A stretch of 64,000 nt of DNA from assembly GCA_963700285.1 (NCBI GenBank), contig CAVOXA010000010.1, positions 1,760,001 to 1,824,000 on the forward strand, read 5' to 3'. Shown piece after piece: positions 13,710 through 34,948 of the stretch. The position numbers and the translations under genes are program-made. The stretch's first letter is position 1; each line of letters begins with the position of its first letter. This DNA comes from an uncultured Chloroflexia bacterium (GTDB lineage Bacteria; Chloroflexota; Anaerolineae; JAAYZQ01). The notes below the pieces were generated by a model. That model was not told the origin of the DNA, did no database searches, and saw nothing but the letters and a program-made list of their open reading frames with translations.

Positions 13710-13745
13710 TCGGCCAGCACTCCTTCAAGGCGGTCTCAATGACCA

Positions 13746-13866
13746 GTCATTCTGAGGAGCGAGCACAGTTCGTGAGCGATGAAGAATCTTTCCTTACACT
13801 GGGCAGGCAGTTTCGATCATGGTCACCGAGATTCTTGGCCTCCGCTGCGCTTCGGCTCAGAATGAC
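13746..13866. repeat. REP/REPIN-like inverted pair
   Basis: GTCATTCTGAG...GAAGAATCT and AGATTCTT...CTCAGAATGAC inverted ends, intergenic. Confidence 0.7.
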
Positions 13867-13963
13867 GTGATTTCTCATGGCTTTCACGTGTATGTTTTGT
13901 CCTCGCCTGCGCAGTAGCGCGACGCCGCCGAGTCATCAGAGCCGCAGCGAGCCCTCCTCCTGC

Positions 13964-15585: not shown

Positions 15586-15805
15586 CGGACACAGACCCTA
15601 AGGGTCTTCTTCAGCGAGGGCATTGTTCACCTGAAAGCAGAGATGCGCCGGCCACCCAATCCCACAACCGTAATCAGACCCTTCGGGTCTGGGGGCAGCA
15701 AGCACGATTATTATAGCAGAGAAGGACCAAAAGCGGAAATATCTGCTCCGGCACGTTGCTGTTCAAGCCTGACTGCGGCAGGCTTGAACAGCAATACGAT
15801 TTGAT

Positions 15806-15834
15806 TTGACGGGCAAGGTTACTTCTGCTACAAT
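15806..15834 (+). promoter_or_regulatory. Sigma70-type promoter of tRNA-Glu
   Basis: TTGACG-17 nt-TACAAT, 11 nt before the tRNA. Confidence 0.75.
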
Positions 15835-15845
15835 AGTGCGGTCCT

Positions 15846-15918
15846 GCCCCCATCGTCTAGTGGCCTAGGACACCGCCCTTTCAAGGCGGCGACAGGGATT
15901 CGAATTCCCTTGGGGGCA
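15846..15918 (+). tRNA. tRNA-Glu (anticodon TTC), CCA not encoded
   Basis: Acceptor GCCCCCA/TGGGGGC, anticodon stem CCGCC/GGCGG with loop CTTTCAA, T arm AGGGA-TTCGAAT-TCCCT. Confidence 0.97.
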
Positions 15919-16007
15919 TACCTGTGATTTGTACCAGGGAGGAAACCTGTGAAAAACACCAGGGTTTCCTCTCAAGGTTTGGGGTCAAACGGATGGGTGT
16001 CAAGGTT

Positions 16008-16205
16008 ATGGGCATCAAAGAAATCGAAAAGGCCATCGTTCAACTGCCAGCCAAAGATCTGGACAAGCTGGCAGGCTGGCTCGAGGATTACCGTGCCCAG
16101 ATGTGGGACAAGCAGATCGAAGAAGATCTCGAAGCAGGACGCCTGTATGCCTTGCTTGCCGAGGTCGATGAGGAGTACGAGGCAGGGTTGAGCCAACCGC
16201 TGTGA
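16008..16205 (+). CDS. Putative antitoxin
   Basis: Small acidic ORF (WDKQIEEDLEAGRL) overlapping a downstream toxin by 4 nt. Confidence 0.7.
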   Translation: MGIKEIEKAIVQLPAKDLDKLAGWLEDYRAQMWDKQIEEDLEAGRLYALLAEVDEEYEAGLSQPL

Positions 16206-16465
16206 AGCACCTGACTCTACCCCGTTTCTGGAAGCACTACGGGCAACTGCCAAAAGAAGTACAAGAGCTAGCCGACAAGAGCTTTGAACTCCTCAAGGCC
16301 GATCCCTACCATCCCTCGCTGCATTTCAAGAAGATAGGTGGGGCAAAGCAGTTGTGGTCAGCGCGCGTTGGCGCCCACTACCGAGTTCTGGGTGTGCAGA
16401 AGCCAGAGGGCATCGTGTGGTTCTGGATCGGCACCCACGCCGACTACGATAGGATACTGTCGTGA
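16202..16465 (+). CDS. RelE/ParE-superfamily toxin
   Basis: DPYHPSLHFKK...WSARVGAHYR...WFWIGTHADYD. Confidence 0.8.
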   Translation: MKHLTLPRFWKHYGQLPKEVQELADKSFELLKADPYHPSLHFKKIGGAKQLWSARVGAHYRVLGVQKPEGIVWFWIGTHADYDRILS

Positions 16466-16540: not shown

Positions 16541-16584
16541 GCCCCGCAAGGGTGGCGACATGGCGTGCGTTCGAGGTCCCTTGG
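16541..16584 (+). repeat. Site R1, left part (split by IS110; remainder 18219-18223)
   Basis: GCCCCGCAAGGGTGGCGACATGGCGTGCGTTCGAGGTCCCTTGG. Confidence 0.9.
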
Positions 16585-16744
16585 ACACGCTTTGTCAAGT
16601 CCCGCAGTGGCCGATGCGCAGGCGGAAACGACGCGGCGCTTTACGATAATTGCACCTCGCTTCAGATACCAATCTTCTCTGGTGAGCCTTTGACTTGCCA
16701 AGTCTTCGAACCCCTACAACGGATTCACGCGTACTTCTGCAGAG

Positions 16745-17959
16745 CTAGGATCTAGGCCGGCGACGCTGAGCACGTTGTTGTATGTGGTAGGACTCGTCGT
16801 AGGCCTTGCCGTCTTGCCACATCTTCCAGATGATGGCCAGCCACCGATTGGCCAGCCGACGGTAGGCATCGGAGTCAGAGCGACAGCGGGGACGGACATC
16901 GCGCCAGTAGGCCAAAGCCCAGCCCGACTGCCGCACGGAGGCCTTGGCGAACTGCTGGGCAATGCGCCGGAACTCACGGTCGCAGCCGCGACGGAAGATG
17001 ACGACCTTGCGCTTGCCACTCTTCTTGGTGACGGGGCAGGTACCGGCCAGGGCCTGAACGCCGGCCGGTGTGGGGAAGCGATCGCGGTGGTCACCGAACT
17101 TGGCCAGCAGCCCAGGAGCCAGGAGCTCGCCGGCACCAGGCAGGGAATCGAAGATGAAGGCATCGGGGTGTTGGGAGAAGAGCTGAGCCAGGGAAGAGAG
17201 GGCTTCCGTGCGACGGAGTACCTGAGGCAGGAGCAGTTCGGCCAAGATGCGGATCTGGTCACGATAGGCTGCCACCGCGATAGGGTTGGCTTCTGGGGCG
17301 GGATCCATCAAGTGAGCGTAACGTCGCGAGATGAGGTCCGCCCGGCCATAACGATGTTCTCGACAGAAAGCCTCAAAAGCAGCTCGAGTCAAGCCTTGGG
17401 CTTCCTGGGCTGTGGGATAGGCCATGAGGAAGTGGAGGTTGATCTGGGCGGTGAGTTTCCCGAATAGGCCCAGAGCTTGGGGATAGACGCGAAACAGGAC
17501 GGCCCGGAGTTGGTTGCTCTGGCGCTGGATGGAGCGGCGCAGGAGGTCGATGAGCCGCACTTGAGCCAAGATCTGTTGGGTCAGAGCAGAGTTGGGTTGC
17601 AGGCGGCGATGGCTGTCCAGGTCGGTGTGGAGGATGCTGGACAGGAGAGCGGCATCGGTGTCATCGGTATGGGCGTCGGTGCTCCGCTGGCGATTGCGGT
17701 AGCCTTTTGTGGCTTGGGGCGGGATCAGATAGACGAGGTAGCCACGGTCGAGTAGGAAATCGACGAGCAAGTTGTAGGCGGTCTCAATGGCGACCAGACA
17801 TTCGCTGGGCGGCACACCCAACTTGCGCCGCTCGTCGTCGAAGCGCTGGAAACCTTCCAGGGTGTGCTTGAATTCGACCTGGCTCACAATGGCGCCTTTG
17901 CTGTTGCGAATGCACAGGTTGTGATGCTGTTCACTCCAGTCAATCCCGAACTTGAACAT
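16745..17959 (-). CDS. IS110 transposase (DEDD recombinase)
   Basis: GIDWSEQHH, VAIET, TDDTDAALL, SLPGAG, CPVTKKSGK; GGAGG RBS before MFKF. Confidence 0.93.
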   Translation of the reverse strand: MFKFGIDWSEQHHNLCIRNSKGAIVSQVEFKHTLEGFQRFDDERRKLGVPPSECLVAIETAYNLLVDFLLDRGYLVYLIPPQATKGYRNRQRSTDAHTDDTDAALLSSILHTDLDSHRRLQPNSALTQQILAQVRLIDLLRRSIQRQSNQLRAVLFRVYPQALGLFGKLTAQINLHFLMAYPTAQEAQGLTRAAFEAFCREHRYGRADLISRRYAHLMDPAPEANPIAVAAYRDQIRILAELLLPQVLRRTEALSSLAQLFSQHPDAFIFDSLPGAGELLAPGLLAKFGDHRDRFPTPAGVQALAGTCPVTKKSGKRKVVIFRRGCDREFRRIAQQFAKASVRQSGWALAYWRDVRPRCRSDSDAYRRLANRWLAIIWKMWQDGKAYDESYHIQQRAQRRRPRS

Positions 17960-17994
17960 AGAACGCCTCCTTTGGGTTCTTGTGCCCATCGGAG

Positions 17995-18185
17995 TATGCG
18001 GACTACCGTGTTCCTATTATGGCGCTCGTAGCGCAGCACGCTTTCGACAGTGCCATCCGGCTAGCCCGGGGGGACCATCCAAGGGTGGCGCTCGCGGCGC
18101 TGGGGGCACGCGGTCCTCTGATCCCGGGCGAGTCTCCGATGGGGTCAGCCTGGCAAGTGGCTGCTCACCGCTTGTAGTCTACCCC
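17995..18185 (-). ncRNA. Predicted IS110 bridge RNA, copy 1 (boundaries approximate)
   Basis: Two internal loops with guides matching target (18079-85, 18102-08) and donor (18013-19, 18037-44). Confidence 0.8.
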
Positions 18186-18251
18186 ATCGGTTGACTCCAC
18201 ACAAGTATAGCTAATAGGGGGCATGTGTCGCCACTTGCCATAATGTGGGCG

Positions 18252-18297: not shown

Positions 18298-18863
18298 TGT
18301 TGTAGAAAAACACAGAAATCGTCGGATTAGGGATACAAGAAAGCCGAGATGAACCCCAGATGAACAGGCAGGCGACCAGAGTCATCACTTTGCCAGACAA
18401 TCCGGCAGTCAGGCAGCTGAGCGAGATGGCGTGCCCCGAAGAGTGTCGAATCACCAGTTGCCAATGCAACCGCAATGTCAAACATGGGCCGAATGGGCTT
18501 GTTTCTTGACGTGTGAGCCTAATCAGCCAAGATACTTCAAATCCGAACCTTCGTGCCGTTGACCGGAGAGCCATGTACGAGGATCGATGGTTCCAGTAGT
18601 CCTACTACGAGGCGGACGGTCCAGGATTTGTTGGGGTGTGAGCGAAACTGATTCGAGATGGCGGAAGGGGCAGAAGCGCACCAACCCTCCCACCATCTCA
18701 TGAGGGGACCCCCTCTCAGTGCATCATGGCCGGCTTATTGTCGAAGGTTCCGCCAACTCCCCATCACGGCGGGATGGGGAGGTCGATGGCCCACTGCCAG
18801 TGCACCGGCCCGGCCACGGGTGTAGGGAATATGTCGTTAGGCTGCCCGTCGCAGTGTTGACAG

Positions 18864-19667
18864 CTACGGGGTAGCATCCCCGTACCCCAGGTCCCGAAGA
18901 AGGTCGGCAATGATGGCGTCACCCGTGGCATTGGTGTGTATGCCGTCTTCAAGGTAGCCTTCTGGATCTTGATTACCATCTGGACCATTGAACGCCGTAT
19001 AGACAGGCACCACGAGAGTACCATACTCGACTGCAACCTGGTGAACGATGGAGTTCACTCCTTCAACGCAGGTCTTCTTGTCCTCGAAGAAACCCAGTTC
19101 CTTCTGATGCTCGAACTGGAAGTGATAGTCCTCAAAGAGGTGGATGATCGTGTCGTTGGTTCCTCGCAGAGCCAGGATCTCGGCGACAATGGCGCCCAGG
19201 TCCCTGTCCATCGCCTCCAATAGGCGATCGCAGCTCAGACCTTTGCTGGTGTATGCGCTTTTAGCTCTCATGCCCCCAGTCCACACCGTTATGACCTCGG
19301 CCTCACGCACCAATGCCCGCAGCTTGTCGTCTTTTCGCAGATTGGCCAGCAGCGCATCGCTGTCCTGCCCACCCTCATGTTCGTAGTGCAGGTTGACTTT
19401 GATGTCGAGGTCATTCTCGATGTGGTCGGCATACATTCCTGGCCACTGACCCATCCCAGTCCTAGAGTCCCCAAACACGACGAGGTCCCATTCGGTGACC
19501 GATTCGGTGACAGTCACCATGGGCGTCACCGTTGGGGCAGGAACAGATGTAGCAGTAGGTGGGATCTGGGTGGGGATGGGAGTAGGTTGGCCAGTCCCGC
19601 ATGCGGCCAAAAGCACCGAGACGATTGTCAGGCCAATCAGTAGCGGAAACATCTTCTTGTAGTACAT
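18864..19667 (-). CDS. SGNH/GDSL hydrolase lipoprotein
   Basis: Lipobox LAAC, Pro/Thr linker, VVFGDS, DGIHTN. Confidence 0.85.
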   Translation of the reverse strand: MYYKKMFPLLIGLTIVSVLLAACGTGQPTPIPTQIPPTATSVPAPTVTPMVTVTESVTEWDLVVFGDSRTGMGQWPGMYADHIENDLDIKVNLHYEHEGGQDSDALLANLRKDDKLRALVREAEVITVWTGGMRAKSAYTSKGLSCDRLLEAMDRDLGAIVAEILALRGTNDTIIHLFEDYHFQFEHQKELGFFEDKKTCVEGVNSIVHQVAVEYGTLVVPVYTAFNGPDGNQDPEGYLEDGIHTNATGDAIIADLLRDLGYGDATP

Positions 19668-19912
19668 TTCACCCTCCTTGTCATTGTCGGTCTGTCTTTG
19701 TCATCCTCTCCCTCAGCTCCCGCGCCCGTCTGTCGTCGCAGAAACAGAAAGAGATCGTCCAGGTTGGCAAAGCCATGCCGCTCGCCGCTGCCCGGGCGGG
19801 CAAGAGACGCCCGCCAGCCAGCAGCCCCTTCGCCCCGCATCCGCCACAACCTCAGCAGATAGGCCAAGTAGTCGGTTTCCTGTTCTTCCGTGTCCTGTGG
19901 GCCTTCGGTCAT
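19637..19912 (-). CDS. Small hypothetical protein
   Basis: RBS; YLLRLWR..WRASL..GERHGFANLDDLFLFL; divergent from BTAD regulator. Confidence 0.6.
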   Translation of the reverse strand: MTEGPQDTEEQETDYLAYLLRLWRMRGEGAAGWRASLARPGSGERHGFANLDDLFLFLRRQTGAGAEGEDDKDRPTMTRRVKCTTRRCFRY

Positions 19913-19959
19913 CGCTACTGCCCTCTCTTCTGTGGTCAGTCTAACACGCGGGCGCTCGG

Positions 19960-19981
19960 AAAACGATCACAAAACGATCAC
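19960..19981. promoter_or_regulatory. Tandem 11-bp direct repeat, candidate SARP/BTAD operator
   Basis: AAAACGATCAC x2 between divergent genes. Confidence 0.5.
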
Positions 19982-20058
19982 AGACAGCCATGAGATGCCA
20001 GAGTTGAACCCCAGCCCGGTGTGGTGTATAATGGAACCGTTGGCAAGGAGGCTAGGAA

Positions 20059-23000
20059 TTGTCTCTTCTCTCGATCCAGTTATTCGGTACCGTTCGTGTG
20101 ACCCTCAAGGGTGAGCCAGTCACGCGCTTCGAATCGGACAAGGCGCGGGCACTGCTTACCTATCTGGCCGTCGAAGCGGACCGCGCCCACCAACGAGAGA
20201 AGCTGGCCGGTATGCTGTGGCCGGAGTCGACCGAACAGGTGGCCCGCGCCTATCTGCGGCGCCTGTTGGTCAACGTGCGCCAGGCTATCGGCGACTATGA
20301 GGCCGATCCCCCACCTCTACATATCACCCGGCAGACGATCCAGTTCAACGTGCTCAGCGACGCTTGGGTCGACGTCACAGCCTTCCTCAGGCTGGTGCAC
20401 ACCCGGGGACTGACAGACCAAGAGACCGTCCAGCAACTGGAGGACGCGGTCCAGCTCAACCGCGGGGGTTTCCTTGAGGGCTTTTCCCTGGCGGGCAGCC
20501 CGGCCTTCGAGGAGTGGGCGCTACTCAACCGGGAGCATCTCCATCGCCTGGTGATGGACGCCCTGCGCCGTCTGGCTGAGCGATACGAGAGGCAGGGGGA
20601 GTTTGGGCGAGCGTTGCCGCACGCCTGGCGGCAGGTGGAACTCGACCCCTGGCGGGAACAGGCGCACCTGCAGGTGATGCGGCTGCTGGCGCTTAACGGC
20701 CAGCGCGGGGCATCCCTGGCGCAGTATGAAGCCTGCCGCCGGCTACTACGAGACGAACTCGGCGTCCAGCCCTCTGCGGAGACGACCGAGCTCTACGAAG
20801 CCATCCGCAAAGGTGAGTTGATCGCGCGAACCATGGAGCAGCCAGACGACAGAGCATGGTCATCATTCAAGCCGCCTGCCCCGCTGTACAATCTGCCGTC
20901 GCAGGCTACACCCCTTTTTGGTCGGAAAACGGAGTTGGCCGCTCTGGAGGCTCTCCTGGCTGGCGCTGCGGTACGCCTGGTCACGATCACAGGTCCGGGT
21001 GGCATCGGCAAGACGCGGCTGGCGCTGGCAGCCGGTGCCCTCCTCTCCGAAGATCAGCGCGCCGCACGGGCCGGACAGCCTGCCCCCGGTTTCCCTCACG
21101 GCATTGTCTTTGTGCCGCTGGCCCCTTTGGCTCTGCCTGAAGATCTTGCCCCCGCGATCGCCCAGTCCCTTGGACTGACCCTGCAGAGAGGTCAGGACCA
21201 GCTCCTCGACTCCTTGCGTCATAGGCAGCTTCTCCTCATCCTGGACAGCTTTGAGCACCTCTTGACAGGCATTGACTTGCTGATTGACATCATGCGCGCT
21301 GCGCCCGGCGTCAAGCTCCTGGTTACATCCCGCGAGCAGCTTCAGTTGCAGGGCGAGCACCTGTTTCCGATCCAGGGTTTGACGTACCCAGGACAGGACC
21401 CCACGCCATCTGTCCTTGCAGACATGGATGTGGGCGCTTACGCGGCGGCCTACCCGGCCATCAAGCTGTTCGTCGAGACTGTGCACCGCGTCCAGCCAGG
21501 ATTCGAGTTCTGTCCAGACGATGCGGTCGTTGTGACGCGCATCTGCCGCCTCGTGGAGGGCATGCCTCTGGCGCTGGAATTGGCCGCGTCGTGGGCTAAT
21601 AGCCTCTCCCTGGGCGAGATCCTGGCCGAGGCGCGGCAAAGCTTGGACTTCTTGCAGGTGGAATGGCACGATGTTCCCGAGCGGCAGCGCAGCATGCGGG
21701 CCGTGTTTGAGGCCTCGTGGCAGCGGCTCAACGAGGCGGAGCAGGTTGTGTTCTGCCAACTTTCTGTGTTTCGGGGCGGCTTCACGCGGGAAGCCGCCGG
21801 GCAGGTGGTGATAGGGGCCGAAGCTAGCCCCCAGCGACTGGCGACGCTGGTCCGCAAGTCGTTTCTGCAGCACTATCCGGCTGAGTCGCGCTACCAGATC
21901 CGTGAACTGCTGCGCCAATACGGGGCCGAGAAGCTGGCACACGATCCAACTCTTGAGGAAGCGGTGCGTGACGAGCACAGCCGCTATTACTGCGACCTGT
22001 TGGGCCAGCAGGAGATGGGCATCAAGGCTGGAGTGCTGCACGAGATCATGCATGCAATTCAGGGCGACATTGAGAATGTACGTGCTGGCTGCATGTGGGC
22101 TGCTACTGAGGGGCCGCTACAGCGACTCGAGCAAGCAGTCAACCCCCTGGGCTGGTTCTACTACCGGGGATATGCCAGTTTCCAGCAGGGAGAGATCACC
22201 TTCGAGCGCCTTGGCGACGCGTTGGCCGCGGCCGAGACCAGGCCGCCGTCAGGCACACCCCCGCAGCGCACAATGGCCAGAATCCTGGCCTGGCGATCCC
22301 TTTTCCGTACGTATGCATATGACCTGCAGACTAGCGAGCGCCTGCTCGATGAGAGCCGGGCGCAGCTCGATGGCCTAGCTCTGGCTGATGAGGACACCGT
22401 GTTTGAGCGGGCCCTCATCTCCAACCAGTCTGGCTACAACTATCTTTATGCCGACCCCACAAAGGCCCGGCGGCTTTATGCCGAAGCCCTCAAACTCTAT
22501 CGACAGATTGGCCACAAGCTGGGCATGGCCGATGCTCTGTTGGCTGTGGGTCGCGCTGATGCCAGACTGGGTGCGCTGGAGGAGGCGCGAGAAGCCATGA
22601 CCCAGAGCGTCTCTCTATGCCGGGACATGGGCGACCTGGTGAGGGAAAGCGAGTCGGTGGCAGAACTGGGGGCTGTGGTAGCCCTAAGGCAATTCCGGTT
22701 TCAAGAGGCGGAAGACCTGATACGGCAGAGCCTGACTCTCGCGCCAGAGACAAACCGCCACGGCGCCGCCTATGGACTGGCAAGTCTCTGCGGTGTGCAA
22801 CTCCTCACCGGCCAGCTCGTTGAGGCTGAAACCACCGCAACCCAGGGCATCGCTCTCTGGGAGGATCTGGGCTTGCGGGTGTGGATTCTTAGAACTTCGT
22901 TTGTCCTCGCCCGGGCCTGCCTGCATGCTGGAGAGTATCGCGCGGCTCGCGACCAGGCAGAGGCTATGGTTTCGCTGGCCCGCGAAATCAGTTGGGTCCG

Positions 23001-23538
23001 GGGCGTCAGCTACGGGAAGATCGTGCTCGGCGAGGTGGCGCTGGCCAGATCCGCCTTTGCTCAATCATACCAGATCCTGCAAGAAAGCGGGACCGATCTG
23101 AAGCAGGCCTCCGCTGATCCGTGGGACGTAAACCCGTCAGCCTGGCTGGGCCTGGCAGCCCGGGGCCTTGAGCGGGAACCGGAGGCGTGGCGACATCTCA
23201 GCACCGCCCTGGAATGGGCAGGCCGCAATCACCAATTCTATGAACTGATGGTTGCCCTGGCGGGCATTGCGCTCCTGCTGGCCGACGAGGGAGAGGCCGA
23301 ACGAGCGATGGAGCTGTATGCCCTGGCGTCGCGCTATCCCTTCGTGGCGAATTCGCATTGGTTTGAGGACGTTGTCGGACGGCACATCGCAGCCGTCGCC
23401 GCCACCCTACACCCGCAAGCTGCGGCGGCTGCCCAGGAACGCGGCCGGGGCCGGGACCTGGTGGCCACAGTGGGGGAGCTCCTGGTCGAGTTGGGGCGGA
23501 ATGCATCTCCGCCACTTTGCGGCGAATCGCCGGCCTAG
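20059..23538 (+). CDS. AfsR/SARP-like regulator (wHTH-BTAD-ATPase-TPR)
   Basis: KARALLTYLA, REKLAGMLWPE, LDPWREQAH, GPGGIGKTRLA, GMPLALELAA, TPR-like C-terminus. Confidence 0.9.
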   Translation: MSLLSIQLFGTVRVTLKGEPVTRFESDKARALLTYLAVEADRAHQREKLAGMLWPESTEQVARAYLRRLLVNVRQAIGDYEADPPPLHITRQTIQFNVLSDAWVDVTAFLRLVHTRGLTDQETVQQLEDAVQLNRGGFLEGFSLAGSPAFEEWALLNREHLHRLVMDALRRLAERYERQGEFGRALPHAWRQVELDPWREQAHLQVMRLLALNGQRGASLAQYEACRRLLRDELGVQPSAETTELYEAIRKGELIARTMEQPDDRAWSSFKPPAPLYNLPSQATPLFGRKTELAALEALLAGAAVRLVTITGPGGIGKTRLALAAGALLSEDQRAARAGQPAPGFPHGIVFVPLAPLALPEDLAPAIAQSLGLTLQRGQDQLLDSLRHRQLLLILDSFEHLLTGIDLLIDIMRAAPGVKLLVTSREQLQLQGEHLFPIQGLTYPGQDPTPSVLADMDVGAYAAAYPAIKLFVETVHRVQPGFEFCPDDAVVVTRICRLVEGMPLALELAASWANSLSLGEILAEARQSLDFLQVEWHDVPERQRSMRAVFEASWQRLNEAEQVVFCQLSVFRGGFTREAAGQVVIGAEASPQRLATLVRKSFLQHYPAESRYQIRELLRQYGAEKLAHDPTLEEAVRDEHSRYYCDLLGQQEMGIKAGVLHEIMHAIQGDIENVRAGCMWAATEGPLQRLEQAVNPLGWFYYRGYASFQQGEITFERLGDALAAAETRPPSGTPPQRTMARILAWRSLFRTYAYDLQTSERLLDESRAQLDGLALADEDTVFERALISNQSGYNYLYADPTKARRLYAEALKLYRQIGHKLGMADALLAVGRADARLGALEEAREAMTQSVSLCRDMGDLVRESESVAELGAVVALRQFRFQEAEDLIRQSLTLAPETNRHGAAYGLASLCGVQLLTGQLVEAETTATQGIALWEDLGLRVWILRTSFVLARACLHAGEYRAARDQAEAMVSLAREISWVRGVSYGKIVLGEVALARSAFAQSYQILQESGTDLKQASADPWDVNPSAWLGLAARGLEREPEAWRHLSTALEWAGRNHQFYELMVALAGIALLLADEGEAERAMELYALASRYPFVANSHWFEDVVGRHIAAVAATLHPQAAAAAQERGRGRDLVATVGELLVELGRNASPPLCGESPA

Positions 23539-23671: not shown

Positions 23672-23720
23672 GCCCCGCAAGGGTGGCGACATGGCGTGCG
23701 TTCGAGGTCCCTTGGGGGCA
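23672..23720 (+). repeat. Site R2 (intact, 49 bp)
   Basis: GCCCCGCAAGGGTGGCGACATGGCGTGCGTTCGAGGTCCCTTGGGGGCA. Confidence 0.92.
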
Positions 23721-23995
23721 TTTTGGTCGCCAGTTAGGACGACATAATAGGAGGAAGAGGTCGGACTCAGGACTTGGGTGCGACCTTTTTCGATCATGGT
23801 TAAGTTCGTCTGATGACGGCCGGAGCTATCCAATGCGCCGGGAGGAATAATGTTGCTTGTCTCGCCGAAGCCTAGTTGAGCATCACAATACGCGCTCATT
23901 ACTTGACCTAAAGAGGATTGTCATCTATACTAGCTCTTGAGGGCACTCGAGTAGGAATACGGACAGATTACCGTTATGCCAAGGAGACGACCCGC

Positions 23996-24628
23996 ATGAA
24001 TCAAATGCCATTCTGCCGCATCGGTGTCTTCTATGACGGTTCGTACTTTAACTATGCACAGAGATACTTCTATTTCCAGCGCAAGCTGGGCTGGCTGGGT
24101 TTCCGACCCTTCCACACTCTCATTGAGAGCTATGTCCGCGCCAAGGAGCAGGGCTACAGCAATTACCGAGTCGTCTATGCTTCTTGGTTTCAGGGGCTAT
24201 TTCCGAGTGGTGGTGCCACCGAGCAGCAACTGAGGTTTGACCGCAACCTAAACCACGATCTGCTGCATGCCGGCATTATGCCCATGTACTTGCCAGTCTC
24301 ACAATCAGGGCAAGCAGAAAAGGGGACTGATGTGGCCTTGGCAATTGACGCACTTCAAATCGGGCTGGAAGACAAGATTGATATAGCGGTGCTTGTCAGC
24401 GGTGATGGAGATCTTGTTCCACTGGTACGAGCGCTCATGAAACAGGGCATCAGAGTGATGGCAGCCTACTTCGATTATGAAGAGGGAGAACACAAAAGCT
24501 TCATCAATGAGCGCCTACTTTCTGTCTGCAACTACGATCTGAACGTCAACCAACTTGAGACCGACAAGGATTTCAAGGCAGTCTTCAAGGGTTTGTTCAG
24601 GAAGCCGGAAGCCGACATTGCGACTTGA
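23996..24628 (+). CDS. NYN domain (PIN-like) protein
   Basis: VFYDGSY, EKGTDVALA, LVSGDGDLVP. Confidence 0.88.
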   Translation: MNQMPFCRIGVFYDGSYFNYAQRYFYFQRKLGWLGFRPFHTLIESYVRAKEQGYSNYRVVYASWFQGLFPSGGATEQQLRFDRNLNHDLLHAGIMPMYLPVSQSGQAEKGTDVALAIDALQIGLEDKIDIAVLVSGDGDLVPLVRALMKQGIRVMAAYFDYEEGEHKSFINERLLSVCNYDLNVNQLETDKDFKAVFKGLFRKPEADIAT

Positions 24629-24933
24629 GGAGTGAACCAGCAGACATGTGGCATGTACTACCGCCCGCGGAATATCGGCTCACTGACCATGCTCGGTTCG
24701 AGATGGAACGCCGCGGGATCTCGGAGGCAGAGATTGCACGGGTCCTTTCTGCGCCAGGGCAGTCTGATCTGGTTCGACCAGGGAGGGTGGTCTACCAGTC
24801 GCAAATGGAGTTCGAGGAACCTGGAAGGATCTACCTACTACGCGTCTTTGTGGATATTGATCGGCAGCCAGCGGAGGTCGTCACAGCCTACCGCACGAGC
24901 AAGGTCGAGAAGTACTGGAAGAGTGAACCATGA
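24625..24933 (+). CDS. DUF4258 protein, putative RelE-like toxin
   Basis: LTDHARFEMERRGIS...VVTAY; start uncertain. Confidence 0.75.
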   Translation: MRSEPADMWHVLPPAEYRLTDHARFEMERRGISEAEIARVLSAPGQSDLVRPGRVVYQSQMEFEEPGRIYLLRVFVDIDRQPAEVVTAYRTSKVEKYWKSEP

Positions 24934-25136
24934 GAGTACGATATGACAGCGAGACAGACACCCTGACTGTCATCTTTGCCGATTCGCCTGTGGCCGAGAG
25001 TGACGAGGACAAGCCTGGCACCATTCTGGACTACGATGTGTCGGGCAATCTGGTATCCATAGAGATTCTCGATGCATCACGGAGGGTGGGGCTGCCCACG
25101 CAAATCGAGTATCAAGTGATGCCAGTTGGTGCGTAG
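24930..25136 (+). CDS. DUF2283 protein, putative antitoxin
   Basis: MRVRYDSETDTL...ILDYDVSGNLVSIEILDAS; ATGA overlap. Confidence 0.85.
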   Translation: MRVRYDSETDTLTVIFADSPVAESDEDKPGTILDYDVSGNLVSIEILDASRRVGLPTQIEYQVMPVGA

Positions 25137-25257: not shown

Positions 25258-25301
25258 GTCCCGCAAGGGTGGCGACATGGTGTGCGTTCGAGGTCCCTTG
25301 G
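25258..25301 (+). repeat. Site R3, left part (split by IS110; remainder 26937-26941)
   Basis: GTCCCGCAAGGGTGGCGACATGGTGTGCGTTCGAGGTCCCTTGG. Confidence 0.9.
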
Positions 25302-25461
25302 ACACGCTTTGTCAAGTCCCGCTGTATCCGATGCGCAGGCGCAAACGACGCGGCGATTTACGATAATTGCACCGCGCTTCTGGTACCAACCTTTCCTGGT
25401 GAGCCTTTGACTTGCCAAGTCTTCGAACCCCTACAACGGATTCAGGTACACTTCTGTAGAG

Positions 25462-26676
25462 TTAGGATCTAGGCCGGCGACGCTGAGCACGTTGTTGGAT
25501 GTGGTAAGACTCGTCGTAGGCCTTGCGGTCTTGCCACATCTTCCAGATGATGGCCAGCCAACGATTGGCTAGCCGGCGGTAGGCATCTGAGTCAGAGCGA
25601 CAGCGGGGACGGGCATCGCGCCAGTAAGCCAGTGCCCAGCCCGACTGCCGCACTGAGGCCTTGGCGAACTGCTGGGTAATGCGCCGGAATTCGCGATCGC
25701 AGCCGCGCCGGAAGATGACGACCTTCCGTTTGCCGCTCTGCTTGGTGACGGGGCAGGTGCCGGCCAGGGCCTGAACGCTGGCCGGAGTAGGAAAGCGATC
25801 CCGGTGATCGCCGAACTTAGCCAGGAGCCCTGGTGCCAGCAGCTCCCCTGCACCAGGCAGAGAATCAAAGATGAACGAGTCGGGGTGTTGTGAGAAGAGC
25901 TGGGCCAAGGATGAGCGGGCTTCCGTGCGACGGAGTACCTGGGGCAGGAGCAGTTCCGCCAAGATGCGAACCTGGTCACGATAGGCTGCCACCGCGATGG
26001 GGTTGGCTTCTGGGGCGGGTTCCATCAAGTGAGCATAACGTCGCGAGATGAGATTCGCCCGGCCATACCGATGTTCTCGACAGAAAGCCTCAAAAGCAGC
26101 TCGAGTCAGGCCTTGGGCTTCCTGGGCCGTAGGATAGGCCATGAGGAAGTGGAGGTTGATCTGGGCCGTGAGTTTCCCGAATAGGCCCAGAGCTTGGGGA
26201 TAGATGCGGAACAGGACGGCCCGTAGTTGGTTGGTCTGCCGCTGGATGGAGCGGCGGAGGAGGTCGATGAGCCGCACTTGAGCCAAGATCTGTTGGGTCA
26301 GGGCAGAGTTGGGTTGCAGACGGCGATGGCTATCCAGGTCGGTGTGGAGGATACTGGACAGGAGAGCGGCATCGGTATCATCGGTATGGGCGTCGGTGCT
26401 CCGCTGGCGATTGCGGTAGCCTTTCGTGGCTTGGGGTGGGATGAGATAGACGGGGTAGCCGCGGTCGAGTAAGAAATCGACCAGCAAGTTGTAGGCGGTC
26501 TCGATGGCGACCAAACACTCGCTGGGAGGCACACCCAACTTGCGCCGTTCGTCGTCGAAGCGCTGGAAACCTTCCAGGGTGTGTTTGAATTCGACCTGGC
26601 TCACGATGGCACCTTTGTCATTGCGAATGCACAGGTTATGATGCTGTTCACTCCAGTCAATCCCGAACTTGAACAT
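25462..26676 (-). CDS. IS110 transposase (DEDD recombinase)
   Basis: Near-identical to copy 1 protein. Confidence 0.93.
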   Translation of the reverse strand: MFKFGIDWSEQHHNLCIRNDKGAIVSQVEFKHTLEGFQRFDDERRKLGVPPSECLVAIETAYNLLVDFLLDRGYPVYLIPPQATKGYRNRQRSTDAHTDDTDAALLSSILHTDLDSHRRLQPNSALTQQILAQVRLIDLLRRSIQRQTNQLRAVLFRIYPQALGLFGKLTAQINLHFLMAYPTAQEAQGLTRAAFEAFCREHRYGRANLISRRYAHLMEPAPEANPIAVAAYRDQVRILAELLLPQVLRRTEARSSLAQLFSQHPDSFIFDSLPGAGELLAPGLLAKFGDHRDRFPTPASVQALAGTCPVTKQSGKRKVVIFRRGCDREFRRITQQFAKASVRQSGWALAYWRDARPRCRSDSDAYRRLANRWLAIIWKMWQDRKAYDESYHIQQRAQRRRPRS

Positions 26677-26712
26677 TGAACGCCTCCTTCGGGTTCTTTG
26701 TGCCCATCGGAG

Positions 26713-26903
26713 CATGCGGACCACCGTGTTCCTATTATGGCGCTCGTAGCGCAGCACGCTTTCGACAGTGCCGTCCGGCTAGCCCGGGGGGACCATCCAA
26801 GGGTGGCGCTCGCGGCGCTGGGGGCACGCGGTCCTCTGATCCCGGGCGAGTCTCCGATGGGGTCAGCCTGGCAAGTGGCTGCTCACCGCTTCCAGTCTAC
26901 CCC
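26713..26903 (-). ncRNA. Predicted IS110 bridge RNA, copy 2 (boundaries approximate)
   Basis: Guides at 26731-37, 26755-62, 26797-803, 26820-26 identical to copy 1. Confidence 0.8.
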
Positions 26904-26975
26904 ATCGGTTGACTCCATACAAGTATAGCTAATAGGGGGCATAGCGAGTTATCGATAAATCGATCTCAGTAGCAG

Positions 26976-27004
26976 AGGACCGGCTCAGATGGCCGGTCCT
27001 TTTG
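26976..27004 (+). terminator. Intrinsic terminator after R3
   Basis: AGGACCGGC/GCCGGTCCT followed by TTTT. Confidence 0.75.
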
Positions 27005-27124
27005 TTCCCAAGGCCCGCAACACCGCTGCCCGATCTGGACAAATCTTGGTTTCTAGGCGATAATGTGTGCATATGGTTCAGGATTTTTGTGTTTTTTGCA
27101 CACATGAGGAACACCTCTGAAGAG

Positions 27125-27706
27125 ATGCCAGACCATAATGCACTATACCAAACTGCCGAGCAGCAGGCAGGGTACTTTACTGCGGCACAGGCCAGGAAGG
27201 CCGGCTTCAGTTCGTCGTTGCTTTCCTACCACCTGGATACCGGTCGCTTTGCCCGGGTGAGGCCACGCGTTTACCGTCTTGTCCAGTTCCCGGCTTCGCC
27301 CCACGAGGATCTGTACGTGGCCTGGCTGCAAGCCGGCCCCGACGCCGTCATCTCCCACGACAGCGCCCTGGCGCTGTATGATCTTTCGGATCTCCTTCCC
27401 GATCAGATCCACATCACGGTGCCACGGACGGCCTCACGACGGCGACAGGGGCTCCGGCTGCACACCAAGCACCTGGCTCAGGAGGAGGTGACCCGCTACG
27501 AAGGGCTGCCCGTCACCACTGTGCTGCGGACGCTGGTCGATGTTGCTGGCGCCGGTTTGGCCGACGAACAGGTTCAGCAGGCCATCCGGGAGGCCCTACG
27601 CCGCGGGCTGGTGACTCGAGAGAGCCTGCTCCGGCTAGCTGCCTGTCGCAGGATCCGGCTCGGACGACTCATCGAGGAGACACTGCACAAAGGGGAGCAT
27701 CGATGA
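27125..27706 (+). CDS. Type IV TA antitoxin, AbiEi family
   Basis: AEQQAGYFTAAQA, ISHDSALALY, PVTTVLRTLVD. Confidence 0.88.
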   Translation: MPDHNALYQTAEQQAGYFTAAQARKAGFSSSLLSYHLDTGRFARVRPRVYRLVQFPASPHEDLYVAWLQAGPDAVISHDSALALYDLSDLLPDQIHITVPRTASRRRQGLRLHTKHLAQEEVTRYEGLPVTTVLRTLVDVAGAGLADEQVQQAIREALRRGLVTRESLLRLAACRRIRLGRLIEETLHKGEHR

Positions 27707-28590
27707 ACTACGACAGTGGTGCAAGCTTTCGCCGAGCCCTGGAGGATCGACTGCGCTCTCAGAGCCTGCAAACCGGAGCGCCCCTGGTCCGGCTACGCAA
27801 GATGGTCGCCTTTGACCGTTTCCTGGTGCGGCTCGTACAGGACCAGCCCAATGCCTGGGTGCTCAAAGGTGGGCTGGCCCTGCAACTGCGACTTGGAGAG
27901 AGGGCTCGGACGACGAAAGACATCGATGTGCTTCTGCTTACTCCTCATGAGGATGTTCATCAGTCATTGGTCCGCGCCGCCCTGTTGGATCTGGGAGATT
28001 GGTTCCAGTTCCAGGTGGAACGGTCCCCGGCTGAGGTGCCTGCCGAACCGGTCGGCGGAGTGCGCTTTCAGGTGCAGGGCCTGCTCGACAGGCGGCGCTT
28101 CGAGACCTTTCACATAGACGTCGGGTGGGGGGATCGACTGCTTGATACGGTGGAAACCCTGGTCACGCCGGCACTGCTGGCCTTTGCTAACATCCCACCA
28201 ACCGAGGTCCCCAGTTATCCATTGCCGCAGCAGATTGCTGAAAAAGTCCATGCCTACACGCGGCCGCGTGCCACTGGCGAAGGTAGCCGAGTGAAAGACA
28301 TGGTCGACATCCTGTTGATCGCCGAGCTCAGACCAATGCACGGACAGGCTTTGGCCCAGGCACTCCAGGCAACGTTCGACACACGCACAACCCACGCGTT
28401 GCCCTTGCACCTGCCCAATCCGCCATCCACCTGGGCTGCACCCTTTCGCAGGCTCGCCGAGGAAACCGGCCTGGGTTATCAAACGCTCACTGGTGCCAGT
28501 GAAGCTGCCCGGCGTTTCCTCGATCCTGTCCTACGAGGCGAAACATTCGGGCTATGGGATCCAATGACGTGGTCCTGGCAGCCACTGTGA
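27703..28590 (+). CDS. Type IV TA toxin, AbiEii nucleotidyltransferase
   Basis: WVLKGGLAL, RTTKDID, IAEKVHA, SRVKDMVD. Confidence 0.9.
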   Translation: MNYDSGASFRRALEDRLRSQSLQTGAPLVRLRKMVAFDRFLVRLVQDQPNAWVLKGGLALQLRLGERARTTKDIDVLLLTPHEDVHQSLVRAALLDLGDWFQFQVERSPAEVPAEPVGGVRFQVQGLLDRRRFETFHIDVGWGDRLLDTVETLVTPALLAFANIPPTEVPSYPLPQQIAEKVHAYTRPRATGEGSRVKDMVDILLIAELRPMHGQALAQALQATFDTRTTHALPLHLPNPPSTWAAPFRRLAEETGLGYQTLTGASEAARRFLDPVLRGETFGLWDPMTWSWQPL

Positions 28591-28610
28591 TTGACGAGCG
28601 CGATGCGATA

Positions 28611-30029
28611 GAGTATCCCTTTCGGTGGAAATTCACCGAGCGCGTTGGGCAACGTGGAATTCGTGGGTCTCCTGTGCGAGCATGGCATTGATGCCGGTCT
28701 CCGAATGATAGGCATTGGCCGCGCGCGTTCGGCAGCGGAGTCTACGATTGAAGCGTTCCAGGCGACTGGTTGCGCGCAGATGCTTGCGTTCCCAGTTGGG
28801 GAATTCTTGCTCCAGGGCAAAGTAGGTGACGGTCAAGCGGAAGTCGCGACGCAAAGTTGCGATCGCCTGAGGTTGTGTGTCGCGGTGGGTGCGAACGACT
28901 TTGAGATAGCGGCGCAGCATGGTTTGGTAGCGCCGGGCCTCCCATATCTGCCGAAAGTCTTGAAAGACCTTCTTGCGATGTCGTCGGCGCTGCTTGTCAG
29001 AGAGGTTCTCTGGTGTGCAGATCGCCTTGTAGATGTTGCGGAGCTTGTGGAAAAGGCACCGTTGCTGCTCAGCGTCAAACCAGACGGTTTGTAAGGCAGA
29101 ACAGAGTCCCTTGCCACCATCGTGGATGATGAGTTCCAAGCCGTTCTGACCACAGATGCCTTGGGCTTCCAATATCTCGAGGAATTTGACCCACTCTTCA
29201 GCGCTTTCACCTTCGCCGAGCCGCCAGAGAAGGATCTCGCAGCGGTCGCTGTCAGGCCAGACACCCATGGCGATCATGATGGGGCACTTGAATCGCCCCT
29301 TGACCGGTCGTCTGCGGCCTTTGCGGTCACGACGTACCTCGCCGTTGGCGCGGAGGAGGGTCACCCAGATGGCATCCACCTGCAAGATGGGCGGCACGTC
29401 CTCCACCTCGCGGTTGGGATCGAGGTTCTGGAGCTGATGCAGACGATTGTTCAGCGTTCGCAGGGCTAGCGGGCCGATGCGCATCTGTTCCAGCTCCCTG
29501 CGCATCTGTCGCAGGCTGATGGCCAAGGCGCCCCATCGTTGAATCTGGATATCCACATCATCCCAGAGCCGTTGATAGGGGCACAACAAGCCATCGAAGT
29601 CGATGTGAACACTTCCTCCGCATGCACACCGGACACGAGGCAGGTAGATGGCCAAGGGACCCCACCCTGTGAGCAAGTGCCGTTGCCGAAACCCATTGCG
29701 ACTGAAGCGATGGCTGGCTTTCGACCCGCAGCGACAACACTTACCTTCTCGACGCAGGCGTCTTGGCACTTTTTTCCGTCGTCGGTGGTAGGGGCGGCCA
29801 ACAACATGGCAAACAATGGCTACGAGTAGCTCTATGAATCGAAGCTCCATGGTCTGCTGGAGAGTCCCTTCTGCTTCCAGTATTGATTCCTTGAGCAAGT
29901 CTCGGGCGTTGACAAGAGTACAACTTTCGGGTATCTTAACCATGGAGCGGCCTCCTCGTAGCTTGGTTTCAGCAACCTTGGCTTACATGGAGTCCGCTCC
30001 AATGCCAATTTCCACCGAGTTGTATACAC
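28611..30029 (-). mobile_element. IS256-like insertion sequence
   Basis: Imperfect 23-bp TIRs GAGTATCCCTTTCGGTGGAAATT / GTGTATACAACTCGGTGGAAATT; no clear TSD. Confidence 0.7.
28633..29943 (-). CDS. DDE transposase, IS256/mutator-like
   Basis: QVDAIW, IIHDGGKGL, QRCLFHKLRN, TSRLERFNRRLR. Confidence 0.85.
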   Translation of the reverse strand: MVKIPESCTLVNARDLLKESILEAEGTLQQTMELRFIELLVAIVCHVVGRPYHRRRKKVPRRLRREGKCCRCGSKASHRFSRNGFRQRHLLTGWGPLAIYLPRVRCACGGSVHIDFDGLLCPYQRLWDDVDIQIQRWGALAISLRQMRRELEQMRIGPLALRTLNNRLHQLQNLDPNREVEDVPPILQVDAIWVTLLRANGEVRRDRKGRRRPVKGRFKCPIMIAMGVWPDSDRCEILLWRLGEGESAEEWVKFLEILEAQGICGQNGLELIIHDGGKGLCSALQTVWFDAEQQRCLFHKLRNIYKAICTPENLSDKQRRRHRKKVFQDFRQIWEARRYQTMLRRYLKVVRTHRDTQPQAIATLRRDFRLTVTYFALEQEFPNWERKHLRATSRLERFNRRLRCRTRAANAYHSETGINAMLAQETHEFHVAQRAR

Positions 30030-30140
30030 TACCCTCACGCTAACGTGTTTGCTCTCACTGCGAATCTGTGCTATACTGTGGCCGATATCAAGAATCGCGC
30101 CTCCAAGAAAAGATTCCGTGACAGGTTTTTGGTAAGTATC

Positions 30141-30167
30141 CCCTTGGGGGCACACATGTCGCCACTT
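30141..30167 (+). repeat. Site R4: core plus inverted right arm, no left arm
   Basis: CCCTTGGGGGCA-CA-CATGTCGCCACTT. Confidence 0.75.
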
Positions 30168-30225: not shown

Positions 30226-30505
30226 TGACTTGAGACCCAAGGCGCAGTCATTGACCAACATAGAAAATGACCTATATCAGCGGAAAACAGCTATTCTGAT
30301 CCCCAGACATTCAGCAGAATACGTTGCTGTCTTCGACTCGTCAACCTAGCCAACGGCAAGGCGGTTTGGCGACACTGTGTGCCACGAAGAAGACTCGAAT
30401 CAATCATGTCGCCATCGCAGCCGCAACCTCGAGCAGAGGCCGAATGGGCCGGTATCTTGATGGATGAGCATGTTTGGCCAGGACAGCTCTCCTTGCTGCT
30501 CCGCA

Positions 30506-30551
30506 ACCCTGCAGTGCTGGCGCCATGGCGTGCGTTCGAGATCCCTGGGCA
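30506..30551 (+). repeat. Site R5 (degenerate)
   Basis: ACCCTGCAGTGCTGGCGCCATGGCGTGCGTTCGAGATCCCTGGGCA. Confidence 0.7.
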
Positions 30552-30782
30552 CCTGGTACCTATACCAGGGTGGAGACTTGGACTTCTTACAGGGGGTAAG
30601 ACTGCGAGAACAAACAGGGCAGAGGCATGGACATTTCACAGAAGGTAGATCTGTGAGAACTGCCAGAGCATCTCGTCAATCGCCATAGATCCCCTGGCAG
30701 TTGGTACCTTGCCTTGCTGGACCTCCAGCAAGGCAAGGTCTATTCTCGCTATTGATGCCTCTGGGCCCCTCACCCAGATTGA

Positions 30783-31976
30783 CTAGCCTCCAGATACACC
30801 CAGCAGATGCCGGGCAAGGGCGTGGTACGCCGGTAACGATGTGGGATCGTTGGCCGCATTGCCGGCCACCGGATGCGACGCAAACCGCACAATGACCATT
30901 TCGGCCTTGGGGTCGATGTATAGGGCCTGGCCGTGCACACCCCGTGCGCCGAACGCGCCGTGCTCGTTGTGCGTGACCCACCACATGTTGCGGTAACTCC
31001 ATCCTTCCAGCAGGCTGTAACCGGCCTTGGCGAAGGCGTCCCGGTCACCGCCGCGCTGGATGTCGTCGACGGCGGCCGAGGGCACGATCTGCTGCCCATT
31101 GAACGTGCCACCACTGCGGATCATTTCGCCAAAACGCGCCAGGTCGCGCAGGCCCGTGTTTAGACCGCCGCCGGCAAAGGGCGTGCCGATGGAGTCGACG
31201 CTAAAGTATGCGTCCTGCTCGGCGCCGAGTCGGCGCCAGATGCGTTCGGACAGCAACTGGGCGGCCGAGCGCCCTGTAACGCGTGCGATCACCCAGCCCA
31301 GGGCGTCGGTGTTTGCCGTCTTATAGCCAAAGGCTTCGCCGTGGTTGCCCTGCTTTTTGACCGTCTGCAGAAACTCGTAGTAACTGCGTGGCCCAGTATA
31401 GTCCTTTGGCTTGGGCAGCGGGTTGCCCGCGTGCGCATGGGCCCACACTTCCGCGTTGGGGTTGGAGTAGTCCTCGCTGAACTTGATCGCCGTGGTCATA
31501 TCGAGCACCTGGCGCACGGTAGCATCACCAAAGCCAGAGCCGGCCAGTTCGGGCACGTATTCGCTGACAGGCGCCTCGGCGTCGATCTTGCCTTCAGCGA
31601 CCAACATGGCCCCCAGTGTGCCGACGAACGACTTGGTCACCGACATCGCACCGTGCTGGCCATCTTCCTTGAGCACGCCAAAGTAGCACTCATAGACGAT
31701 GCGCCCTTTGTGCAGCACCACGATCCCGTCGGTGTAGTTGGCCGTCAGCGACTGGGCCCAGGTCATTGGCTGCGTGGCGCCGAGGGGGGTGAACTGTAGG
31801 GCGTCAATGTCGGCTCGCAGTTCTCGATCGAGTGGGATGGGCGCCTCCAGCCCCCGTGAGACGTTGACCGTGGGCATCAACTGGCGAAAGTTCGAGACGC
31901 TCCAACGCATGGCGGGGAATCGGAAGTAGCTGCCATCGTCAAAACGCAGCGTGCGATCGGCAGGCGGTGGGGTGCG
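30783..31976 (-). pseudogene. N-terminally truncated class C beta-lactamase-family serine hydrolase (NylB-like)
   Basis: SVTKS (SxxK), FGYKTANT, ARGVHGQ; family-like sequence starts abruptly at PPPADRTLRF. Confidence 0.75.
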
Positions 31977-32186
31977 GTGACCCTGCTGGTCCTCGCCTGT
32001 GGCGGGATTGCGGGCTATGGCGCGAGCGCCGTCGAACACCCCCGCTACTTCTACATACTCGCCTTTGCAGCCATCACTGTGTTTACGCTGTACGTCATTC
32101 TCGACGTGGAATACCTGCGCCATGGCTTTGTCCGTCTCGATCAAGTGAATCAATCGCTGGCCAATCTGGCAGACATGATGAAATGA
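31977..32186 (+). pseudogene. C-terminal fragment of a DUF4239-like membrane protein
   Basis: LYVILDVEYLRHGFVRLD resembles the DUF4239 C-terminus; no N-terminus. Confidence 0.5.
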
Positions 32187-34865: not shown

Positions 34866-34948
34866 ATGGGACACCATTTTGTCCCGATGGGACACGAAAT
34901 GGGACACCAATCTGCCAAGATGGGACACAAAGGGACACCAACGGACAC
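34866..34948 (+). repeat. Cluster of six GGACAC direct repeats
   Basis: Starts at 34869, 34890, 34902, 34923, 34933, 34943. Confidence 0.75.

Follow-up and report, generated by a model that had tools for sequence, protein, structure and literature searches.

The window, by which we mean the whole 64,000-nucleotide stretch analysed here, holds a single tRNA gene, tRNA-Glu(TTC), with parA and parB immediately upstream on the opposite strand. Behind this tRNA gene, all on the + strand between positions 16541 and 35809, lie five near-identical copies of a short site, a sixth that is degenerate and a junction of a different type, numbered R1 to R7 so as to fit the statements of the original prediction. 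These joints cut 20 kb into units of 671, 7131, 1586, 4846, 402, 4607 and 648 bp, IS elements included.

15846 to 15918, + strand: tRNA-Glu(TTC), called by ARAGORN and Rfam, the 3′ half forming the host (B-type) arm and the core
15888 to 15894, + strand: tRNA-Glu motif GGCGACA, with an 11-nt spacer; the central TC is at 15906 to 15907
15924 to 16465, + strand: cassette 1, a small ORF and a ParE-like toxin
16541 to 16584, + strand: left part of R1, a site divided by IS110; the remainder is at 18217 to 18233, and the empty form is known from contigs
16585 to 18216, − strand: IS110 copy 1, in the R1 core with GG duplication; transposase ORF 16745 to 17989, matched in Pfam and over cut-off in NCBIfam
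18864 to 23538, both strands: cassette 2, a GDSL-like ORF (−), a small ORF (−) and a 1159-aa BTAD/AAA/TPR regulator (+)
23672 to 23720, + strand: R2, the 49-mer
23918 to 25136, + strand: cassette 3, an NYN-domain protein, DUF4258 and DUF2283
25258 to 25301, + strand: left part of R3, divided by IS110 copy 2 (25302 to 26934); the remainder is at 26935 to 26941
27002 to 29943, both strands: cassette 4, an AbiEi/AbiEii pair (+), then an IS256-family transposase (−)
30118 to 30164, + strand: R4, with the core at 30140 common to the other sites and a different left arm (type E)
30506 to 30554, + strand: R5, a degenerate copy
30783 to 34692, − strand: cassette 6, a PF00144 (beta-lactamase-family) ORF and a DDE transposase
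35113 to 35161, + strand: R6, with a putative −10-like hexamer at 35089 to 35094
35261 to 35736, + strand: cassette 7, a 77-aa ORF and HicA
35761 to 35809, + strand: R7, whose right arm runs on to 35863
35864 to 36460, + strand: 5′ part of a group II intron (Rfam), beginning 5 nt after a hairpin in the R7 right arm

The first 20 nt of the 49-mer match five times in the window, against 0.02 expected. The copies are limited to this one 20-kb array and to a single orientation; across the 7.05-Mb genome there are six full-length matches (at most 14 mismatches), all in the array, with no full-length match outside it and just weak matches elsewhere (C10:787107/790288 and C1:1501124). Identity as a REP or REPIN was rejected, the copies being confined to the array and not dispersed over the chromosome; the 30 ORFs scanned in the window, among which a RAYT gene would be expected next to such repeats, include no Y1 transposase. 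Outside this genome, the 28-nt site pattern is present in 10 of the 22 genomes scanned from its family and in none of 178 drawn from the class's other families. An exact-pattern scan of genome contigs returned 12 loci, 11 labelled Anaerolineae and one on a 2.6-kb contig in an Anderseniella bin, which is probably misbinned.

Several further features were observed alongside. At L051:10100-13300 (G000:C10:787-790 kb) two ORFs, labelled by eye as membrane glycosyltransferase-like and methyltransferase-like, lie between degenerate core-like sequences spaced 3.2 kb from each other, possibly a stray cassette. The blocks flanking the array (window 11296 to 15924 and 37152 to 57363) are swapped in order in the same-genus G001:C12, through rearrangement or an assembly difference, and a PEP carboxykinase gene at window 38629 to 40228 seems split over two frames, by a frameshift or a sequencing error.

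R2 and its right arm can be divided as follows.

23672 to 23683, + strand: outer arm, proposed as the hairpin's 5′ strand; found in this arm type only, and resembling the tRNA anticodon arm
23684 to 23691, + strand: left motif TGGCGACA, at the attP-type distance of 16 nt from the centre and predicted to bind a zinc-ribbon domain
23692 to 23707, + strand: 16-nt spacer; its inner 11 nt agree with the reverse-complemented right inner arm in 7/11 positions (tRNA 3/11)
23708 to 23709, + strand: predicted crossover dinucleotide TC, the dyad centre in a dyad scan
23710 to 23720, + strand: right inner arm, identical to the tRNA's last 11 nt
23721 to 23830, − strand: decayed 3′ tail of a recombinase gene, from alignment to recombinase 3′ ends (0/300 shuffles as high)
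23725 to 23732, + strand: right (mirrored) motif, 15 nt from the centre; in intact recombinase-linked arms it lies 1 nt farther

Inside the right-arm tail of R2 is a terminator-like hairpin (+ strand, about 23755 to 23790), whose role as a terminator was judged by eye. The original prediction had pointed to a spacer 5 nt longer than that of the tRNA in the site interior, and to a mirrored copy of the motif just past the core at R1, R2 and R4; both are seen, the R1 copy lying beyond the IS110. When we searched 401 genomes of the class for GGCGAC, a gap of 8 to 26 and the 13-nt core, a pattern that allows 19 spacings, 34 matches in 18 genomes were recovered: 18 with gap 12 (the tRNA spacing), 15 with gap 17 and one with gap 11. 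Two spacing classes 5 nt apart hold 33 of the 34, and a reversed control pattern had no match in any of the 401 genomes. The longer-spacing arms vary in sequence between lineages. Genomes in this count, as in the others given here, are kin and not independent.

The inner dyad score peaks at TC in R2 and R6 (7/11 each) and in R7 (8/11), the tRNA scoring 3/11 there, the arms of two relatives form a perfect 11-bp dyad about it (11/11), and the central TC is present in 69 of 81 rows. Right arms linked to a recombinase gene carry the mirrored motif at exactly 16 nt in 14 of 16 cases, the other two having no clear motif, in rows that are not independent and to which a reading-frame constraint may contribute. 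Among the 65 unlinked rows, three are opposite-strand readings of those same dyads, 48 of the remaining 62 are without the motif, and 14 have it at 13 nt (4), 14 nt (1), 15 nt (4), 16 nt (3) or 17 nt (2). According to Rutherford and colleagues (PMC3783163, in excerpt), the zinc-ribbon domain of serine integrases reads a 9-bp motif at positions 16 to 24 of attP and 11 to 19 of attB, and our motif together with its next base falls at exactly those positions if the centre is 0, as the 25-bp half-site there implies. The longer spacer and the inverted arm are the informative features of the site, because both match this attB/attP shift of the zinc-ribbon motif (PMC3783163, in excerpt).

An inverted pair of GGCGAC-type motifs about 32 nt apart, without the tRNA core, lies some 200 bp inside a common right-arm type; such second pairs are found at window 30365 to 30415 and about 18425 to 18465, and also in L039, L047 and L064. 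Upstream of R6, at window 34866 to 34950, are about six copies of an iteron-like repeat of 7 to 8 nt, and the 250 to 300 bp ahead of R6 is conserved before sites in several relatives, possibly as an origin or regulator-binding region at element ends.

A family-wide search identified a recombinase gene that adjoins tRNA-Glu in a relative, G017, where it occupies L098:8743-10317. Its 524-aa product has Resolvase and Recombinase domains over cut-off (Pfam) and a weak zinc-ribbon match, its best PDB matches are the TP901-1 and SPbeta integrases, and its last codons run antisense through the tRNA 3′ half. Of 31 metagenome loci, 15 fall short of the C-terminus and 16 reach it, one of these stopping at a contig end; the core stands at the gene end in all 15 informative loci, 11 at tRNA-Glu (ten full tRNA-Glu calls and one cut tRNA) and four at inner joints (two of long spacing and two R4-type with a shortened core). 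More distant homologues end at tRNA-Glu in 2 of 10 cases, and the remainder at other tRNAs or none. At L040 a C-terminal piece of the recombinase terminates in a type-A site, and this one locus, cut by a contig end, is the direct link between the type-A arm and the enzyme. Within the array, alignment of recombinase 3′ ends to the right arms of R1, R2 and R4 gave scores that in each case 0 of 300 shuffles reached; the other five right arms do not align in this way, shuffles scoring as high in 15/300 (tRNA), 6/300 (R3), 105/300 (R5), 195/300 (R6) and 40/300 (R7).

No intact cognate recombinase gene was found in this genome (89% complete), in which tblastn returned tRNA overlap only and no Resolvase domain was seen. 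A search of viral contigs turned up neither the recombinase nor the site pattern, and a whole autonomous element with both ends was not recovered, the far end not being found within the flanking sequence covered at L098, L164, L165, L168 and L185. Neighbours of the recombinase gene are an HTH gene in G017 and primase and HU-like genes in L168; the segment L168:2064-7912, with a 627-aa unassigned ORF and primase-like, HU-like and recombinase genes ahead of tRNA-Glu, is likely an autonomous element. L073, L074 and L189 have an extra tRNA-Glu(TTC) with an atypical upstream region, one of them with the element-type two bases before the centre, and these copies are possibly carried by elements as spare landing sites.

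A second group of recombinases, in G021, in G012 and as a truncated copy on contig C15 of this genome, likewise ends at the core; one second-family gene lies at L091:1194-3002. At the C15 joint the motif lies 15 nt to the left and 20 nt to the right of a TT position, a second-family 3′ tail matches the R7 right arm at a score of 102, where 1000 shuffles reached 48 at most, and left arms of the R4 type have greater symmetry about TT than about TC. Judged from these few loci, the array would mix arms of two families, whose predicted cuts would lie 4 bp apart in the common sequence. R4 itself combines a right arm that is a tail of the first family with a type E left arm, more symmetric about TT, that is likely from the second. 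The second-family motif was not seen in the right arms of G021 and G012. Some type-A arms in L042 and L043 are joined to right arms symmetric about TT, and given these joins and a second family that appears TT-centred, TC is the preferred crossover and is not proven. The truncated second-family recombinase of this genome stops, at L136:10560-10630 (G000:C15), in a host-arm copy that is degenerate and not part of a tRNA, likely as an off-target insertion. Some right arms (L042:6367, L042:7154, L043:788, L045:67, L037:9193 and L029:1925) reverse-complement the tRNA's own left arm about TT and could be host-type arms for the second recombinase family.

Our best explanation, to which we give a probability of about 0.82, is that the site is the joint between cassettes stacked behind tRNA-Glu and likely an attP-type double-stranded site of a large serine recombinase, predicted to cut the central TC and to read two mirrored GGCGAC motifs via its zinc-ribbon domains. 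We infer serine rather than tyrosine chemistry at these sites, and large serine recombinases act on double-stranded DNA (PMC3783163, in excerpt). A circular element (left arm, TC, right arm) would recombine with the tRNA 3′ end at TC, and its insertion would restore the tRNA and the terminator-like hairpin while pushing older cassettes outward, each inner joint then being formed by the left arm of a newer element and the right arm of an older one. The cassettes here would have lost the recombinase gene and would be mobile only when an autonomous element supplies the enzyme, and such recombinase-less units would persist with help from their toxin-antitoxin cargo. Since there is seemingly no intact enzyme in the genome, the array would stay inactive until such an enzyme is brought in.

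Standard serine-integrase rules disfavour a new attP recombining with an existing attL junction (PMC3783163, in excerpt), and stacking therefore needs either relaxed directionality or decayed right arms. The shifted or lost right motifs in passenger cassettes may be one answer; another may be an enzyme without strict directionality, by analogy with the Tn4451 recombinase, for which that property is described (PMC5704250, in excerpt). A point against the att-site model is that the outer 12 nt are well conserved, which it does not explain. A reading of the repeats as transposon ends, with the mirrored motifs as terminal repeats, was rejected: the motifs of adjacent units have the tRNA-like core between them, and the spacing fits att geometry.

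The cassettes are 0.4 to 7 kb long and rich in toxin-antitoxin genes. Cassette 1 recurs between two type-A sites in L021 (98% identical) and L024 (86%), and cassette 7 in L024 (92% identical) and L029 (88%); for both, homology ends at the sites, and the two, which are first and last here, are adjacent in G017. Synteny with the same-genus G001 breaks off at the tRNA end, and the tRNA 3′ flank varies among genomes, drawing on right-arm types found after inner sites. Sequencing runs, which are contigs of mixed sediment communities, hold other arm combinations and an IS-free R1, joins that are weak support because the contigs come from mixed organisms. Some joints in these contigs, of depth 3 to 4, connect a left arm back to where cassette 1 begins; they fit a circle and another array order alike.

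The cassettes could instead be inert scars, internally deleted remnants of larger autonomous elements whose small units never move as such, and right arms that are decayed gene tails with shifted or lost motifs, a genome without an intact enzyme, and IS and intron insertions throughout the array are all consistent with this. We nonetheless think it improbable: the same cassettes of 650 to 680 bp recur, with both boundaries at sites, in several genera and in varied neighbourhoods, the left arms remain highly conserved, and the sediment contigs, mixed organisms as they are, combine arms in other ways.

Mobile double-stranded joints, as we prefer to see them, have also to be set against the fold that drew attention to R2, described in the original prediction as a tRNA-like hairpin with one extrahelical G. 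R2 does fold as claimed, with G6 bulged, but its stability is no better than that of shuffled sequences (top strand, z −1.18, 25/200; bottom strand, z −1.73, 10/200). The C>T changes reported for R3 and R6 are present; R7, which the prediction had left out, carries C5>A, by which the base pair adjoining the bulge is lost. In the 18 homologous copies whose core is intact, and whose hairpin 3′ strand therefore cannot vary, pair 5-44 is C-G in one, T-G in 11 and A-G in 6, and the single-bulge stem is perfect in one; R2 is a rare form, because C-G is found in just that 1 of 18. Of the 41 copies, 39 retain the bulged G, and the left arm too is largely conserved. Homologues show no covariation, the outcome that the original prediction had itself named as speaking against it: over 30 of the 41 copies (26 distinct; the 11 omitted have cores that are IS-split, truncated or strongly decayed) the score was 0.119 against 0.116 shuffled, with 181 of 500 shuffles as high, and the observed values were reached by 273/500 shuffles for cells with two-sided change and by 43/500 for pairs with two-sided change, the most favourable measure. 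The left arm is complementary to the core in 7 of 7 type-A arms, whereas among 13 other arms 11 have no complement and two have weak three-error matches. The outer 20 nt align to the tRNA anticodon arm and variable loop with 16 of 21 columns identical, so most of the complementarity pre-existed in the tRNA sequence, and the hairpin is likely a by-product of the descent of the type-A arm from the tRNA 3′ half.

The same stem could have a role as RNA, the serine-recombinase site holding a second job in which an outward promoter yields an RNA stem mimicking a tRNA (acceptor plus T-stem), which would then be processed or act as a regulator of the following cassette or of the antisense recombinase gene. 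A −10-like hexamer lies at most 30 nt upstream of 17 of the 41 copies, at −24 or −23 in 16 of those, stem variants are mostly C>T and would be tolerated on the top strand as G-U, and hairpins follow several sites. C>T changes are common anyway, however, A-G mismatches are frequent, covariation is lacking, and the hexamer is missing from R1, R2, R3 and R7; Rfam, as the original prediction had expected, gave no match on any copy (window 15500 to 37500, E ≤ 1). We regard such a role as unlikely, and it would supplement the serine-recombinase att-site explanation, not replace it.

The original prediction went further and proposed a new attC-like site, acting as a folded single strand that is marked by the extrahelical G and recombined by an integron-like tyrosine recombinase, which we now consider very unlikely. 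The R2 stem can form, 87% of cells pair across the 26 distinct copies, G6 is retained, and the contents and orientation of the cassettes are integron-like, but covariation equal to that of shuffled controls, the A-G beside the bulge in a third of the intact copies (6/18) and the left arms that use the same core with no complement to it all argue the other way. So does the search for an enzyme: no integron integrase IntI scored over cut-off in this 89% complete genome (best 69 bits versus 265), and PF00589 matches in this genome and five site-bearing relatives include none on a site-bearing contig or near the array, the nearest being a below-cut-off match 9 kb upstream of the G017 tRNA. A tyrosine recombinase or integron integrase beside the array was thus rejected, none being found there. 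The RYYYAAC/GTTRRRY boxes are missing, as had been stated, from all five copies examined (60 nt upstream to about 60 nt downstream). What survives of the prediction is a recombination site, kin to the tRNA 3′ half, that is neither attC nor a member of an Rfam family; what falls is a new type of folded single-strand site. The site is real and was misread as a single-strand hairpin, and it appears to be a variant of known serine-recombinase att stacks whose activity is predicted from sequence.

Class C group II introns start 5 nt after a hairpin. The intron behind R7 is present as a single copy here, with at least six related copies in G001, and at window 35864 to 37137 its 5′ part is cut by an IS630-like remnant. 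Both genomic copies of the IS110 element, which codes for a DEDD transposase, are inserted in the core with GG duplication, and copy 1 has the following parts in its non-coding end.

17990 to 18216, − strand: non-coding end, predicted bridge RNA, its layout compared with PMC11208160 (in excerpt)
18102 to 18108 and 18079 to 18085, − strand: predicted target guides
18037 to 18044 and 18013 to 18019, − strand: predicted donor guides

The non-coding end of copy 2, with its predicted guides, is at window 26708 to 26934 on the − strand. The predicted guides have 7-nt matches to the left and right target and 7- to 8-nt matches to the donor ends, and their order and orientation, predicted from the DNA, are as published for bridge RNAs (PMC11208160, in excerpt). 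They match the att core and hence the tRNA-Glu 3′ end; the 12-mer target has six further genomic occurrences, the tRNA included. The right target guide lies in an 11-nt stretch to which the outer arm and motif of the site also correspond. That the repeat is itself an IS110 product (its target or end), or a REP-like dispersed repeat, is scarcely credible: although both genomic IS110 copies sit in a site and their predicted guides match its core, the IS recognises about 12 bp of a conserved site of 49 to 64 bp and splits it, empty sites are the majority, genomes and contigs without the IS carry sites, and copies confined to one 20-kb array and one orientation, with weak matches only elsewhere in 7 Mb, do not fit a dispersed repeat.

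For the serine-recombinase att site that we favour, the closest published system is the stack of Dehalococcoides ssrA islands with DsiB. In the excerpted account (PMC3146451) these islands follow a stable-RNA gene in tandem, with repeats of the 3′ end of that gene between them; DsiB is a large serine integrase whose gene overlaps attL, and 15 islands are without an integration module. Both systems are from Chloroflexota, with tandem units behind a stable-RNA gene, some of them integrase-less, and in both the gene for a large serine recombinase lies on the reverse strand and overlaps the attachment site with its 3′ end. They differ in target, which is tRNA-Glu(TTC) here and tmRNA (ssrA) there, and in the units, which here span 0.4 to 7 kb and carry for the most part toxin-antitoxin or single genes. 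The six-gene dsi module, as far as that account describes it, was not seen beside the recombinase here (neighbours in G017 and L168), and DsiB is likened by description.

Cassette chromosomes of the SCC/SCCmec and ECC kind, with CcrAB or CcrC, also combine a large serine recombinase with att sites of about 50 bp that have dyad symmetry, and multiple att repeats in composite islands at a gene 3′ end (PMC6222049, in excerpt). Unlike them, with their rlmH target, the present system targets a tRNA with a single recombinase gene, and the recombinases here score 52 to 86 bits against Ccr models with cut-offs of 700 to 900. Attachment sites of phage serine integrases of the A118/LI type share the central dinucleotide, the pseudo-palindromic arms and an outer motif shifted by 5 bp from host to element arms (PMC3783163, in excerpt); a phage, however, integrates once and locks, whereas here joints are stacked, and the inner joints resemble attP hybrids whose right motifs are often shortened or missing.

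IME/CIME accretion (PMC5704250) and tycheposons (bioRxiv 2020.12.28.424599), both known to us in excerpt, are alike in that repeated integration at a tRNA pushes decayed, integrase-less elements outward with partial tRNA copies between them, but they mostly use tyrosine recombinases (910 of 937 elements in the tycheposon study). Site-specific serine IMEs are described as disrupting their target genes (PMC5704250, in excerpt), whereas the recombinase here would restore a tRNA. The array works like an integron in having small co-oriented cassettes with toxin-antitoxin cargo, and its sites host parasitic insertions, an IS110-family element and a group II intron, of a kind also known from attC sites. 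It differs in having no attC boxes, no IntI and no structural covariation. We found no published account of the Anaerolineae tRNA-Glu system, only analogues, in a search outside which most subscription journals lay.

Put together, these features allow a broader reading, possible but tentative, in which the array would be a serine-recombinase integron. A pool of sub-kilobase cassettes common to Anaerolineae genera would be loaded in trans at tRNA-Glu by two families cutting 4 bp apart; passengers would shift or shed the right zinc-ribbon motif, and the tRNA joint, never a locked attL, would be re-entered repeatedly as in a ratchet. The type-A arm would be the host tRNA arm with a 5-bp insertion, and IS110 would have retargeted its bridge RNA onto the core.

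The chemistry is not new, and tandem stacking by a serine integrase has already been published for Dehalococcoides. The locus does supply a tRNA-targeting recombinase with predicted att sites, together with an IS110 element with a predicted guide-target pair. Its host, element and passenger arms, the last with a right motif at 13 to 17 nt or none, form a natural base-by-base series, which bears on how a one-way serine integrase builds tandem stacks.
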